Positions 1-5,121 of a DNA stretch of 64,000 nucleotides are shown here, piece after piece. Under the pieces are notes generated by a model. The model worked only from the letters and a program-made list of their open reading frames with translations. It was not told the DNA's origin and did no database searches. Location: positions 25,206 through 89,205 of the forward strand of contig JANQJU010000095.1 in assembly GCA_028281495.1 (NCBI GenBank). Direction: 5' to 3'. The number at the start of each line of letters is the position of its first letter. The stretch's first letter is position 1. Position numbers and translations under genes: made by a program. Origin of the DNA: SAR324 cluster bacterium (lineage in GTDB: Bacteria > SAR324 > NAC60-12).

Positions 1-3000
1 CATGTCTCGGAAATAACCACTACGGACGACCCAGAAAAGGAACACAAAAACGTCACGAAACCTGAACCTTCAAAAGTACCCGAAGCTAAGAAGGAGCTCG
101 AAGCTAGGAAGCCCCAGGAAGCCGTCGCCAAAAAGAAACCCAATGCTGTCGAAAAGAAAAAGCCGGAAGGTAAGCAGAGGCCGAACACCAAAAATAAAGC
201 CGCACACAAAAACAAATTAGCCGTCACAGGAAAGAAAAAGCCCGAAGCCGCGGGCAAGAAAACGAAGGAGAACAAAACAGGACCCCCTGATGCAGCCGCT
301 GGCCAACAAACCAAACCTTCCACAAAAAAACATTCATCGGGTGATGCGACTCCTCCCAAGGCGGCGGCTTCCCTAGCGATGAAAGCGAAAGCAACCTCAG
401 GTAACCAACTGGTTGATTTCATGCGTTCCTCACCGACGGTGATGTCACAAAACATCAGCAGTCTGGGCAATGCCATGACTGCCAACATGAATCAGCAAGC
501 GAAGGCCACTTTGGAGGCCCAGCCCAAAATTTCGATGAAAACTTCAGGCAGCCCCGACGGTGGAGCTAGCGTTCCGCCAACTCTCAACAAAGCGGCAGCT
601 CCCCCAAAACCCATCGTGTTGAAAAAAGGACCCGTCCCCAAATACAACAACTCGGTACCTACACAACACTCCAGACAAGACCCCTCTCACATTTCAACTT
701 CCATTGGGGCAAAACCTAAATTGCAAGCCACCGGTTCGGCTGACCCTAAGTTGACCGAACAAGCCAGCAAAGCGGGCAACACAGAGGCCGATGCCGCCCA
801 TGTCGAGTCGTTGGCAACCATTCACAGCAACAATGGGGAAGAACGGGTACAGCCCCAACAGATGGAGTTGCACAAACAAGCCGTTCTTCCGGCTCCCGTT
901 AAGATGGATCAACCTGCGGTGTCGTCGGAGGTCCTGGGTTATGCCACGCAAGATCTGCCAGGCTCAGTTCGCACCCTTTCCGACAAAGCCTTGAAAGCCA
1001 AGATGGAAAGCCAATTGGCTGCCAATGACCAAAAGGTGGAAGCGGCTGTCGCCAAACGCGACCTTGACAACCAACAAGCGATGGAAGCCGCGCAAACCCA
1101 AGCAGCGAAAGAAAGTGCAGCGGCTCAAGCTCAGCAAGATGCGGCTGTGGCCCAAGGAAGAGCGGCTATCTCTTCAAAAAAAGACGAGGCCGCAGCGGAA
1201 ACCGAAGGGGTGATGCACAAATACAAAGGCCAAGTGACTGCCAAGCATAAGGAGACGATGGATAAAGCCAATAAGACCATCGCTGATCACCAAAAGCGTG
1301 CGGATGCAGAAATGGCCAAAGGGGAACAAAAGGCCCAAGCCGAAAAGCGAAAAGCGGAAGCAGAGGCCGCCAGAGAACGCCAGGAAGCCCAGCGTAAAAA
1401 AGACAAAATGCACTGGTGGCAAAAAGTCGGCAGTTTTTTCTCAAGCCTTTGGAGTGCGCTGTCCCGGGCGATCACCGCCATCGTCAGTGTGGTCACTCAT
1501 GTTGTGACAACTGTCCTCAAAGCGGCAAAAAATTTGGCAATTGGCATTCTGAATGCGGCCACCAAAATCTTAACGGTGTTGATTGACCAATTCACCAAAG
1601 CGCTCAAAGCGTTTCTTTCGGTGGCTTTGGCATCCTTTCCAGGGATCCGCGTCAAACTGTTTGCGGCCATTGATGCAGTGGTCAGTGCGGTCAAACAGGT
1701 GATGGACAAAGTCATTTCCTCCCTGAAAAACACCCTGACCAACCTGATCGATACCTTGAGCAAAGCCTATGCTTTTGTTGCCAGTGTCTTCAAAGCGGCA
1801 ATGACCGCAGCCTTGGCCGTTGCCACGGCCATCGTCAAGGGTCGCTTCAGCAGCCTCCCGATGATCCTCTTCCGTGCGGCCTGTGAAGCGGCGGGGATTC
1901 CCCCCGAACCGGTCATCGAGATTTTGAAAAACGCTGCCGATGCCTTCATGGACATCATCAAACATCCGATCAATTTTGTGAAAAACCTGTTCAAAGCCAC
2001 TGCGCTGGGGATCAAACAGTTCGCAAAAGGTTTACCGAAAAAACTGCTGGGCGGTTTGATGTCTTGGCTGTTTGGCAAACTGGCCGAAGCGGGGATCGAA
2101 CTGCCAAAAACATGGGATCTGCCATCGGTCTTCATGTTGATTCTGAAAGTGCTCGGCCTGACCTTGGCCAATGTGAAAGCACGGGCCACCGCCATCCTTG
2201 GCGCAAAAAATATGGCCCGAATCGAGTTTGTGATTGAGCAGGCAAAAACCCTCTTCACCAAGAGTCCGGCAGCGGTGTGGGACCACCTCAAAGCCAAAGC
2301 CCACGAGATGAAAGAGGCGGCCCTCAAAGAAATCAATACTTGGTTGATCACCCGAGTCATCGGAGGACTCATCGAAAAGTTCTCACCTCCGGTGGTTGGG
2401 GCCATCATCGGGGCGATTCAGATGATCATGGCGATGGTCGGCAAAGCCAAACAGATCCTGCAATTGATGGCGGCGGTGTCCAAGAGCATGAAGCTCATTG
2501 CCCTGGGATCGTTGGGGGCAGCGGCCAACAAAATCGACTCGGTGTTGACTCAGAGCATTCCATTGGTGATCAACATGGCGATGGGCTTTTTGGGCATCAC
2601 GGGATTGGCCCAAAAAGTTCAAGATGCCATCCTGAAACTCCAAGAGCCTGCCAACCAGGCCATCGACTTCATCATCAAGAAATTCATTGCCCTGGCCAAA
2701 AGTGCCATGAGTGCGGTGAAGAAGGCTGGCAAAAAAGTGGTCAAAAAAGTGAAAGGCCTGTGGCAGGGCCGCAAAGATTTCACGACCAAAGATGGTGAGG
2801 AGCACGCCGTTTACGTGGATGGCACTGGCAAGGATGCTTCCATCGTGGTGAACCCCGTCCCCAAACAAGAGGTTTCGGCTTATTTGGACAAAGCCGAGAA
2901 AAACCTGCCGGAGAATGACGAATTCAAAGCCAAAGTTCAGGCAGACCTCAGCCAAGCCCGTTCGCTGCTCAGCACCATCGAAGGGGATATGGTGGACGTG

Positions 3001-5121: not shown

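Follow-up and report, generated by a model that had tools for sequence, protein, structure and literature searches.

A giant SAR324 protein joining a tape-measure-related helical array to an EndA-like nuclease: a probable CIS cargo

The largest open reading frame within the 64-kb window (the whole stretch of DNA analysed here, 64,000 nucleotides from a contig of a SAR324 cluster bacterium) encodes P0001, a giant protein in which a long series of hydrophobic helices precedes a predicted nuclease. The locus raises the question of what such a protein is, and how its nuclease would reach DNA. The earlier note had offered two answers, a delivered nuclease effector or a surface protein processing extracellular DNA; the former is favoured by relatives in contractile injection system (CIS) clusters and by the protein Tme, while the evidence goes against the latter. 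We consider that P0001 is probably a CIS/eCIS cargo or effector, of the tape-measure-related type exemplified by Tme. The class concerned is very large and has been described before: its toxins are loaded and fired into cells by phage-tail-like CIS, and combine a tape-measure-like, membrane-inserting body with a DNA-cutting enzyme. Within it P0001 is rather ordinary, apart from some unusual additions. Its peculiarities are the lack of DUF4157, an orphan N-terminus, an extra tail and the absence of a CIS gene from the 59 kb downstream.

The gene and the N-terminal part of the protein

The reading frame is open from the first base of the window, as originally noticed, and the predicted size of more than 1,700 amino acids holds both for the part within the window and for the full protein record. 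The latter has 1,778 residues, with the window translation 100% identical to it, so that only 72 codons are absent from the window and the true start lies 216 nt 5' of window position 1. The window excludes around 25 kb of the contig, including everything upstream of P0001. Window positions 2230-7984 and 3519-7915 each recur, at 100% identity, in an independent Logan assembly, showing that the nuclease, the tail and the stop codon are not assembly artefacts. When clustered at 90% identity, each of the ten window proteins tested stands alone or is joined by a single companion known from Logan only; tRNA and Rfam scans of the window gave no match. All the architectural elements originally listed are present in P0001, beginning with the following.

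1..5121, + strand: C-terminal ORF of P0001, frame 1, 1,706 codons, stop codon at 5119-5121
1..414, + strand: Lys/Pro/Ala-rich disordered N-region (P0001 aa 73-210), by composition
415..984, + strand: family-conserved pre-array region (P0001 aa 211-400), by BLAST and family consensus
985..1413, + strand: Ala/Lys/Gln/Glu-rich helical, coiled-coil-like segment (A 26%, K 15%, Q 11%, E 10%)

The composition of the N-region (K 22%, net charge +17) agrees with its first description as Lys/Pro-rich and disordered. Overall, the first ~210 residues of P0001 are D/P/T- and K/A/P-rich and lack hydrophobic segments, as judged by composition rather than by a disorder predictor. Within them, alignment with the paralog P0002 reveals a Lys-rich insertion of ~67 residues that is missing from the latter. 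A profile of the N-terminal 75 amino acids detected no relative among 5.8 billion proteins, and thus no known loading signal is recognisable there. A link of the word LEDNRPEA to an eCIS motif (DNRPEA...QRKLQ) was considered but could not be substantiated; in a set of 165 proteins and 80 loci the word is confined to P0001, P0002 and P0019, and the literature gave no match. DUF4157 (eCIS_core, PF13699) was not found by Pfam in the 1,706 residues encoded by the window, is not on record for full-length P0001 in precomputed Pfam results and was not detected in P0001, P0002 or any window ORF using an iterated local DUF4157 HMM.

Similarity to the wider family starts with the pre-array region, containing the motifs FMRSSPT..., ...GSADP... 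and VLGYATQDLPGSVR; BLAST alignments of P0001 to P0003-P0005 begin at P0001 residues 212/299. The segment that follows, which has a weak TolA-like match, had previously been called a coiled coil. An Ala/Lys/Gln/Glu-rich helical segment is indeed located there, its coiled-coil nature being read from composition only.

The helical array, its family and their surroundings

The central part of P0001 is occupied by the helical array and the motif that closes it.

1414..2832, + strand: ~480-aa tape-measure-related helical array (window aa 472-944, P0001 aa 544-1016), by family profile
1468..2610, + strand: span with five transmembrane-like hydrophobic segments (Kyte-Doolittle at least 1.6 over 19 aa)
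1468-1527, 1765-1836, 2119-2181, 2380-2448 and 2542-2610, + strand: the hydrophobic segments, by the same measure
2755..2880, + strand: family-conserved post-array junction motif (GLWQGRKDFTTKDGEEHAVYVDG...IVVNPVP), from alignments A2 and A6

What was first seen as some 450 residues of repetitive amphipathic and hydrophobic helices corresponds to an array of ~480 residues with five hydrophobic segments, whose helices we infer to insert into a membrane. An AF2 model of the array is all-alpha, at low confidence (pLDDT 42). The array-module superfamily is defined here as those proteins matching a 478-position profile built from P0001-P0009; P0001 aa 544-1016 matches profile positions 1-478 end to end (E 1e-202) and is the sole array-module ORF in the window. 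This ~480-aa carrier module is very abundant: searching with the profile recovered more than 6,400 representative clusters (6,466 with the cut-off at E<=1e-3, and 3,837 with E<=1e-30), their sources spanning many phyla of bacteria and including at least one archaeon.

The tape-measure likeness first suspected for the array is borne out by matches to 5-7 PHROG tape-measure families, the best at E 8e-12 to 9e-13; among other family members such matches reach E 1e-15. It is the first half of the family's array that resembles phage tape measures (PHROG 991, 58, 1272 and 4200 among others), namely their stretches of hydrophobic helices. These matches, along with the large size of P0001 and the C-terminal enzymatic motifs that phage tape measures sometimes bear (PMC13277306), would suit a true tape measure, setting the length of a CIS or of a prophage tail and bearing an enzymatic domain at its C-terminus. 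The genomic evidence makes this very unlikely. The closest relatives, P0005 and P0004 (29-30% identity over ~750 aa), are encoded between a PF19268 CIS_TMP gene, immediately upstream, and an AAA+ ATPase, and since a separate tape-measure gene lies next door in these close relatives, P0001 is not a length-determining tape measure. The prophage tape-measure fragment named in the earlier note as a refuting outcome survives as regards the relationship to tape measures, not as regards the function. Furthermore, P0001 matches neither CIS_TMP nor any Pfam tape-measure family, no tail genes lie downstream in the window, and two paralogs with swapped toxin ends share one contig. Unlike phage tape measures, the family carries toxin domains and is nearly absent from viral contigs, with 2 members in 2.9 million of these against 253 in 185,579 genomes; both viral-contig members adjoin a CIS-type AAA+ ATPase.

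The large unannotated ORFs upstream of the P0005 and P0004 genes were read as baseplate genes, and the P0007 gene has Pvc16_N, an AAA gene and one more eCIS_core protein in its vicinity. More broadly, 57 genome loci, each 15 kb or longer, were scored for markers within 10 kb. The commonest neighbour is the AAA+ ATPase (29 loci), followed by a separate small DUF4157 gene (26) and by sheath, tube, terminator and VgrG-like genes (19-20 each). CIS linkage is not universal, however, since 27 of the 57 loci have no CIS marker within that distance, among them 13 Lentzea genomes with plain housekeeping synteny. Nor is DUF4157 a constant companion, being absent from about half of the family (70 of 138 members by the local HMM, 20 of 32 by Pfam). 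In 21 of 46 DUF4157-less members in large loci a small DUF4157 gene is found nearby, such a partner typically lying immediately upstream (cluster median offset -420 nt). Among 32 randomly chosen members, Pfam recognised eCIS_core in 12 and Endonuclea_NS_2 in 12. No Pfam or NCBIfam model matched the array module in the proteins scanned. With about half the family lacking DUF4157, about half of the genomic copies more than 10 kb from recognisable CIS genes and no such model, effector catalogues based on DUF4157 or on operon proximity likely miss many members.

The surroundings of P0001 itself show no such linkage as far as the window covers them. HMMs made from the relatives' neighbours detected neither CIS structural genes nor an AAA+ loader nor a DUF4157 gene in the 64-kb window, and Pfam scans of window ORFs of at least 150 aa found no CIS, tail, competence or uptake genes. 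The 59 kb downstream of P0001 likewise contain neither a CIS gene nor a Sle2-like small DUF4157 gene, and the downstream gene P0017 (Methyltransf_28+TPR) has no homologue at any of 80 family loci. TIR-pentapeptide and type I-E cas genes also occur in the window. A role for P0001 in a defence island was considered and set aside, these genes lying 50 kb away and PADLOC yielding no match on the window.

This absence could indicate an orphan, a toxin derived from a CIS effector and now working without an injection machine: it might, for example, be released by lysis, with the array entering membranes unaided, or might attack the membrane and DNA of its producer, leading to eDNA release or programmed death. 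Consistent with this are the absence of CIS genes downstream, the lack of DUF4157 in cis, the 27 family loci devoid of markers (those of Lentzea included) and the precedent of the Streptomyces CIS and Tme, which target the producer itself (PMC11126660). Nevertheless, we regard a stand-alone toxin as unlikely. Effectors far from their machine are common, 12% of known eCIS-associated toxins (EATs) being encoded more than 10 genes away (PMC11297309), and about 25 kb of the contig lies outside the window. In addition, the whole carrier body is well conserved, both between the two paralogs and family-wide, and P0001 shows no autonomous secretion signal.

The nuclease cassette, its exchange and the tail

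Beyond the array, an acidic linker (net charge -17) leads to the nuclease.

2710..2780, + strand: cassette-swap junction (P0001 aa ~975-1000), from the P0002 identity profile and BLAST
3196..4365, + strand: ~390-aa nuclease cassette (window aa 1066-1455, P0001 aa 1138-1527), common to P0018, P0019 and the L091 protein
3610..3945, + strand: Endonuclea_NS_2/EndA-like nuclease core, predicted beta-beta-alpha-Me (window aa 1204-1315), PF13930 and PF01223
3751..3753, + strand: predicted catalytic His (window His1251, P0001 His1323) in DGGH, from the EndA 3OWV alignment
3811..3813, + strand: predicted metal-binding Asn (window Asn1271, P0001 Asn1343) in WNLAPQ, aligned with the Asn of EndA 'NIAVQ'
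4366..5118, + strand: 251-aa orphan C-terminal tail (P0001 aa 1528-1778), Pro/Ala-rich then acidic, by composition and alignments
4417-4437 and 4483-4503, + strand: exact PAAPATG repeats; 4573-4599, + strand: degenerate copy, SPAAPPTEG
4714-4746 and 4936-4953, + strand: two basic NLS-like patches in the tail

The nuclease domain proposed from its motifs was recognised by two Pfam models, each above its gathering cut-off: PF13930 with 39.1 bits against 27 (E 1.1e-9) and PF01223 with 26.7 bits against 23 (E 5.2e-6), the latter being the profile originally suggested as a check. The motifs are DGGH at window aa 1248-1251 and WNLAPQ at aa 1270-1275. His1251 occupies the alignment column of DRG[H->A] in the Streptococcus pneumoniae DNA-entry nuclease EndA (PDB code 3OWV), is invariant in alignments A1 and A3 (window, P0018 and P0019) and is kept in the L091 protein, while Asn1271, corresponding to the Asn of the EndA N-x-A-x-Q motif, is invariant among the cassette relatives. 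Both residues are thus conserved, as the initial assignment demanded. The likeness to EndA has its limits: the Arg of DRGH is replaced by Gly in P0001, the core forms part of a larger, ~390-aa cassette and the similarity is marginal, EndA 3OWV being the sole PDB match of a three-sequence cassette profile, at E 0.02. A phmmer search of the PDB with the whole protein, or with the nuclease region alone, gave no match. The AF2 model of the cassette has a mean pLDDT of 35.

An EndA-like core, together with five transmembrane-like helices that could anchor the protein and the reported link between Tme and eDNA release (PMC11126660), might point to a membrane-anchored or surface extracellular nuclease serving, like EndA, in eDNA processing, nutrient scavenging or DNA uptake. 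Several observations render this highly improbable. No stretch reaching Kyte-Doolittle 1.6 over 19 aa occurs before P0001 aa 562, so that the first ~560 residues offer no candidate signal-peptide h-region, and no Pfam anchor domain was found. The array is a conserved, CIS-linked module and not a generic anchor, the polymorphic C-termini are typical of toxins, and competence or uptake genes are absent nearby in the window.

Only three relatives of the ~390-aa cassette are known, namely P0018, P0019 and the L091 protein, and it is C-terminal in all of them. In the last, the same cassette (34% identity, E 4e-53) ends a canonical eCIS_core+array protein. An instance of cassette exchange is found on the contig itself. 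The paralog P0002 has the first ~975 residues in common with P0001, at about 80% identity; along the alignment, identity runs at 0.8-0.97 up to aa ~975 and then drops to about 0.1, mapping the junction to about 25 residues. Past this point P0002 carries another nuclease domain, of the family's commonest type, whereas the cassette of P0001 is the rarer, EndA-like one. Profile comparison of the two C-termini is not significant overall, local identity near the GH...N core being only about 25-30%. In this pair nature offers a clean case of one toxin cassette being swapped for another on a tape-measure-like CIS carrier, and the mapped junction is useful to those seeking to re-program CIS payloads through C-terminal replacement in Tme-like proteins.

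The combination of a conserved N-terminal body and nuclease cassettes that vary at the C-terminus could also place P0001 among classical polymorphic toxins delivered by T6SS, T7SS, CDI or Rhs. We think this extremely unlikely. Pfam identified no PAAR, VgrG, Rhs, LXG, TPS or haemagglutinin domain in the window-encoded part of P0001, and the VgrG/PAAR/Rhs context or T1SS, T6SS or T7SS markers envisaged at the outset were not found by Pfam either. The genomic context of the relatives is that of CIS, and there is no adjacent conserved immunity gene: the neighbours of the cassette homologue P0019 (at L006) have no homologue in the window, those of P0018 (at L007) having been screened for CIS markers only.

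As all three homologous cassettes terminate at '...QKTF', equivalent to window aa 1455, the nuclease of P0001 is internal, as the earlier note had stressed, and has a 251-residue extension behind it. Cassette homologues stop short of this tail, and no homologue covering it was found. Of the three PAAPATG-type repeats originally counted two are exact and the third is degenerate, while the highly acidic character described is confirmed by a net charge of -16 over the last 218 residues. A read-through or frameshift origin of the tail was rejected, given the agreement of two independent assemblies and the length of the open frame, 251 codons being more than chance would be expected to give at 47% GC. 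It is doubtful, though conceivable, that P0001 and P0002 form a CIS-independent or differently delivered offshoot, with a lineage-specific N-terminal signal (LEDNRPEA...) replacing DUF4157 and the NLS-like, acidic 251-aa tail acting as a eukaryote nuclear-targeting or a self-inhibitory (DNA-mimic) module. If so, the nuclease would be built for the eukaryotic nucleus, or would be kept inactive in its producer without an immunity protein.

Known systems and a proposed delivery route

The closest characterised protein is Tme (BN159_7576), the tapemeasure-related effector of the Streptomyces davawensis CIS (Nagakubo et al. 2024, PMC11126660). Tme comprises DUF4157, disordered regions, a coiled coil, TMP-like transmembrane helices and an EndA-like DRGH nuclease; on purification it was recovered together with spike and tube-initiator proteins of the CIS, whose phenotypes are traced to the Tme nuclease. 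The producer itself is the target of both the Streptomyces CIS and Tme, the latter being linked to eDNA release (PMC11126660). By this published description P0001 shares its giant size, disorder, coiled-coil segment and TMP-like hydrophobic helices, as well as an EndA-like nuclease with catalytic His and metal Asn, and it likewise belongs to a family with members in the CIS clusters of many phyla. The differences are equally clear. Tme has an N-terminal DUF4157, missing from P0001, and its nuclease forms the C-terminus, whereas that of P0001 is trailed by 251 residues. After the helices Tme has a 250-aa Arg-rich, CPP-like segment where P0001 has the acidic linker of net charge -17. The motif is DRGH in the one and DGGH in the other. 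Finally, the tme gene lies inside its CIS cluster, while no CIS marker accompanies P0001 in the 64-kb window; Tme-like effectors are described as keeping a conserved place beside baseplate, spike or tube-initiator genes and as the largest ORF of their cluster.

A precedent for the missing DUF4157 is provided by Sle1 (SLIV_17115), a DUF4157-less TMP-like effector which, with Sle2, forms a pair in the Streptomyces lividans phage-tail-like particle (PMC13277306); effectors of this type go with a small DUF4157 partner gene next to them, like that of Sle2, and lie close to the sheath gene. By its description Sle1 resembles P0001 in being tape-measure-like, in lacking DUF4157 and in having C-termini that vary among relatives, but its C-terminal domain is not a nuclease. 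Moreover, cargo loading has been found to need a disordered N-terminal region and the AAA+ protein Alg15, DUF4157 being dispensable (bioRxiv 10.64898/2026.05.27.728243).

On the favoured reading of P0001 as a CIS cargo, and by analogy with these systems, the disordered N-terminal region would serve as the loading signal, and an Afp15/Alg15-like AAA+ ATPase would feed the protein, largely unfolded, into the lumen of the tube. Sheath contraction would then expel it, the tape-measure-like hydrophobic helices might enter the membrane and help the C-terminal part across, and the EndA-like His-Me nuclease would finally cut DNA. The conserved body (aa ~210-975) may be regarded as a carrier, onto which alternative toxin cassettes would be recombined. 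The injection machine would be encoded elsewhere, either on a different contig or in the ~25 kb of this one that the window leaves out. None of this overturns anything in current understanding; rather, a delivery context is proposed for a giant gene of orphan status, and for its paralog, in a poorly sampled organism.

In general layout P0001 resembles the EATs and the AlgoCIS cargoes Cgo1 and Cgo2, in which DUF4157 is optional and a long linker precedes a variable toxin domain; their disordered N-terminus has a candidate counterpart in P0001, judged by composition (PMC8213781, PMC11297309, PMC8894135, bioRxiv 10.64898/2026.05.27.728243). Known EATs mostly lie close to the operon, usually at its 3' end, with 88% of them within 10 genes and 12% further away (PMC11297309), whereas there is no operon in the window of P0001, whose N-terminus has no relatives. 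Long linkers between DUF4157 and toxin domains, along with frequent absence of immunity genes, have been described for these proteins (PMC8213781), and the AAA+ ATPase of EAT loading is also the commonest neighbour in the P0001 family.

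The giant open reading frame and its helical array

Frame 1 of the plus strand is open from base 1 of the window until the stop codon at 5119-5121, a run of 1,706 codons. Among 5.8 billion proteins, a word-indexed search recovered a 1,778-residue product, P0001, which is 100% identical to the ORF and derives from an 89,205-bp NCBI contig, so that 72 codons are missing 5' of the window. Window 2230-7984 and 3519-7915 are each reproduced at 100% identity by an independent Logan assembly, the two coming from different SRA runs, so nuclease, long tail and stop codon can be taken as real. 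The giant ORF and its layout as described in the earlier note are confirmed, the succession of Lys/Pro-rich N-region, helices, linker, nuclease and Pro/Ala-rich, then acidic, tail being borne out by composition. Of the three PAAPATG-type repeats claimed for the tail, two are exact and the third is degenerate. For the supposed coiled coil an Ala/Lys/Gln/Glu-rich segment is indeed present, coiled coil and disorder both being predictions from composition only.

Compositional segments of P0001
N-region: Lys/Pro/Ala-rich; 22% Lys, net +17
Segment after the N-region: rich in Ala, Lys, Gln and Glu
Hydrophobic region: 490 aa, Ala/Lys/Leu/Val/Ile-rich, net +31; five stretches with Kyte-Doolittle values of at least 1.6 over 19 residues
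Linker between helical region and nuclease: acidic
C-terminal tail: Pro/Ala-rich, then acidic

The helical array (window 1414-2832) had been likened to tape-measure or membrane-inserting segments. The first comparison is supported by five to seven PHROG tape-measure families matching window residues ~472-700 (E 8e-12 to 9e-13), with further tape-measure PHROGs matched by other family members (best 1e-15); membrane insertion is a conjectural property of the helices. No model in Pfam or NCBIfam covers the array region of P0001. A 478-position profile made from P0001 and seven homologs matched 6,466 clusters among 1.84 billion representative proteins when the limit was E<=1e-3, of which 3,837 also pass E<=1e-30. 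The best 150 matches mostly span the whole profile, and the proteins that hold them range from 645 to 4,682 aa. The array is thus a discrete, very abundant conserved module, not a set of generic hydrophobic repeats. Conservation across the family extends to the region before the array (P0001 residues ~210-545), and P0001 is almost certainly a member of this family.

Over the array of other scanned members Pfam yields only weak apolipoprotein-like matches, and the module seems to lack a curated model. A post-array motif, WW..(x)..F....G..H.L.....G..A.LMVAS.P (window 2755-2880; alignment A6), is present in most members and in P0001, and absent from its paralog P0002; it may mark the boundary between carrier and toxin.

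Contractile injection system context of the family

PF13699, the 'eCIS core domain' (DUF4157), is found close to the N-terminus in most of the first 16 homologs. P0005 and P0004, the closest relatives, sit between a PF19268 gene, for the tape measure of a contractile injection system (CIS), and an AAA+ ATPase; two large unannotated ORFs, read by us as baseplate genes, come before them. Near another relative, P0007, lie Pvc16_N, a further eCIS_core protein and an AAA gene. When one genome per species was scanned, 253 relatives emerged, from Acidobacteriota, Chloroflexota, Actinomycetota, Proteobacteria, Cyanobacteria, Bacteroidota, Verrucomicrobiota and one Methanosarcinales archaeon. Neighbours were clustered for the 80 best loci; the counts below are for the 57 of them that span 15 kb or more.

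Genes recurring at the 57 large array-family loci
Afp15-like AAA+ ATPase: 29
Separate small DUF4157 protein: 26, clustering immediately upstream (median offset -420 nt)
DUF4255-type terminator: 20
Sheath gene: 20
Tube gene: 20
VgrG-like spike: 19

Copies distant from CIS genes are not rare, since 27 of these 57 loci have no CIS gene within 10 kb, among them 13 Lentzea genomes in which the neighbours are ordinary housekeeping genes. The archaeal member, a 1,386-aa protein lacking DUF4157 (metagenome-assembled genome locus L020, ORF 7805-11962), likewise has no detectable CIS marker within 10 kb.

P0001 might be a true length-determining tape measure, as its PHROG matches could be taken to imply. 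This is unlikely: relatives possess a dedicated CIS_TMP gene, two paralogs with different toxin ends coexist, and viral contigs hardly ever carry the family (two matches in 2.9 million, both adjoining the same AAA+ ATPase). The earlier note had left the choice between a delivered nuclease effector and a surface protein. The CIS-type relatives and the tape-measure-like body favour the effector, and a surface-anchored EndA-like nuclease lacks support, there being no stretch with Kyte-Doolittle values of at least 1.6 over 19 residues before P0001 residue 562. A T6SS, T7SS or CDI toxin is disfavoured, Pfam showing no trafficking domain in P0001. The interpretation in the earlier note is thus partly supported: P0001 is read as a nuclease effector that is delivered and is built on a tape-measure-like body, with a CIS as its most likely, though at this locus still putative, means of delivery.

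The effector class in which P0001 probably falls is already described. Geller et al. 2021 (PMC8213781) reported DUF4157 proteins in which over 1,000 aa of linker precede the toxin domain, and noted that immunity genes are often lacking. In Tme of Streptomyces davawensis (Nagakubo et al. 2024, PMC11126660), DUF4157 and a coiled coil occur in a protein that is about 70% disordered; several TM helices show remote homology to phage tape measures, and an EndA-like nuclease of the DRGH type forms the C-terminus. Tme purifies together with the spike and tube-initiator proteins of the CIS, and the eDNA release and sporulation phenotypes that depend on the CIS are due to its nuclease. Sle1 (2026, PMC13277306) is a tape-measure-like CIS effector without DUF4157, partnered by an adjacent small DUF4157 protein. 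To be loaded, AlgoCIS cargo must have a disordered N-terminal region and also depends on Alg15, an AAA+ ATPase, but can do without DUF4157 (2026 preprint, 10.64898/2026.05.27.728243). P0001 shares with Tme the family body and EndA-like nuclease, and with Sle1 the lack of DUF4157, links drawn from shared architecture, Pfam/PHROG assignments and genomic context rather than direct alignment. Unlike Tme, it has no DUF4157 and its nuclease is internal, with a 251-residue tail, instead of C-terminal.

DUF4157 was not found in P0001. Its absence is common in the family, being seen in 70 of 138 full-looking members and, by Pfam, in 20 of 32. In that random sample of 32 full-length members eCIS_core and Endonuclea_NS_2 each occur in 12, making 'array plus NS_2 nuclease' the commonest layout. 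Residues 1-75 of P0001 are shared with P0002 and, across the 5.8 billion proteins, with no other relative, excepting the word LEDNR. This lies at residues 39-43 of P0001 (upstream of the window start) and 38-42 of P0002, and twice, at 28-32 and 42-46, in the N-terminus of P0019, a 466-aa stand-alone cassette protein from a different sample. No further proteins with an N-terminus of this type were found.

HMMs built from the relatives' neighbours, and Pfam scans of ORFs of at least 150 aa, revealed neither CIS genes nor an AAA+ loader nor a DUF4157 gene in the whole 64-kb window, which starts inside the P0001 gene. What matters most is the upstream flank, since in relatives the AAA+ and small DUF4157 genes are usually found immediately ahead of the array gene. 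The missing CIS context leaves room for the main alternative, a CIS-independent descendant of the array family, which we consider rather improbable. That this particular gene encodes a CIS cargo or effector is reasonably probable. An AAA+ loader would then recognise the disordered N-terminus and thread the protein into the tube lumen; on contraction P0001 would be expelled, its tape-measure-like helices might insert into a membrane, and the EndA-like nuclease could then degrade DNA, whether in the producer itself, in another bacterium or in a eukaryote. Relative to the known class the twists are modest: DUF4157 is missing, the N-terminus is an orphan, the nuclease is followed by an added tail and so lies internally, and the cassette is swapped between paralogs.

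The nuclease cassette and its exchange

Window residues 1204-1315 match PF13930 (Endonuclea_NS_2; 39.1 bits, cut-off 27), and the nuclease region also exceeds the cut-off of PF01223 (Endonuclease_NS; 26.7 against 23 bits), upholding the nuclease assignment. The only close relatives of the region are P0018 (479 aa) and P0019, at 39-46% identity; a metagenome scan added a third, at locus L091. The sole solved structure matched by the cassette profile is the pneumococcal DNA-entry nuclease EndA (3OWV, E 0.02). In this alignment the DGGH His lies opposite the DRGH catalytic His, which is mutated there, and the WNLAPQ Asn opposite the metal-binding Asn. Both residues are invariant across the cassette alignment and kept in the L091 protein, so the catalytic pair is conserved. 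AlphaFold confidence was low (pLDDT 35 for the cassette, 42 for the array).

All three homologous cassettes end at QKTF, equivalent to window residue 1455, which defines the P0001 nuclease as a ~390-aa cassette (residues 1066-1455). The 251 residues that follow have no detectable relative among 5.8 billion proteins; it is this added tail that makes the nuclease internal rather than C-terminal, as had been noted. The otherwise acidic disordered tail contains two basic NLS-like patches, KKVKKPGRKLR (window 4714-4746) and PSKRKG (4936-4953).

P0002 (1,264 aa), encoded on the same contig outside the window, is 80-97% identical to P0001 between residues ~200 and ~960, after which the similarity is lost over some 25 residues (P0001 ~975-1000; window nt ~2,710-2,780). 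The C-terminus of P0002 carries the family consensus GHLL..L.G.G...NL.P....N, with a weak PF13930 match. The L091 protein is a canonical one, with eCIS_core (E 1.3e-32) and array (34%, E 1e-44), and its C-terminus is formed by P0001's cassette (34% identity, E 4e-53); in P0018 and P0019 only a short disordered N-terminus precedes the cassette. The pattern is that of polymorphic-toxin recombination, here on a carrier of CIS cargo.

A search for a conserved immunity gene was negative: none of the genes around P0019 has a homolog in the window, and the Methyltransf_28 and TPR gene downstream of P0001 lies next to no other family member. Directly upstream of the L091 gene is a repeat-rich, Asn/Ile-rich ORF of 1,006 aa (107-3127, +) without a Pfam hit; it looks like a beta-helix or tail-fibre protein and may be an eCIS fibre.

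Other features of the window

6937-7212 (+) and 7214-7468 (+): abutting ORFs of 91 and 84 aa, resembling an antitoxin and PIN-like toxin pair; the second appears truncated, another ORF continuing in a different frame at 7392-7538
~7500-8300: broken small ORFs only, one of which (7705-7929) we take to be transposase-like
8297-12898 (+): five ORFs (SBP+VWA, XpaC-like Halogen_Hydrol, 364 aa without Pfam hit, 95 aa, TelA), resembling a tellurite/toxic-anion-resistance-type module
14000-24000: low GC (0.36-0.41, about 0.46 elsewhere)
14259-17495 (-) and 17476-18741 (-): ORFs of 1,078 and 421 aa with overlapping ends and no Pfam match
55095-56492 (-): pentapeptide-repeat and TIR-domain protein, directly upstream of the next
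56587-63773 (+): type I-E CRISPR-Cas operon (Cas3 HD-helicase, Cse1, Cas7-like CT1975, Cas6e-like), with no CRISPR array seen in the window
28742-40337 (-): large GH30-like, MACPF/perforin-domain (30855-32852), 1,073-aa NAD/FAD-binding and 1,244-aa Ser/Thr kinase-AAA-TPR genes

Both Logan contigs end near the broken ORFs, at 7984 and 7915, suggesting an assembly-breaking repeat or IS remnant at ~7500-8300. The low GC and large Pfam-less ORFs of 14000-24000 may mark an island. A bacterial MACPF gene in the company of GH30-like, NAD/FAD-binding and kinase-AAA-TPR genes is unusual.
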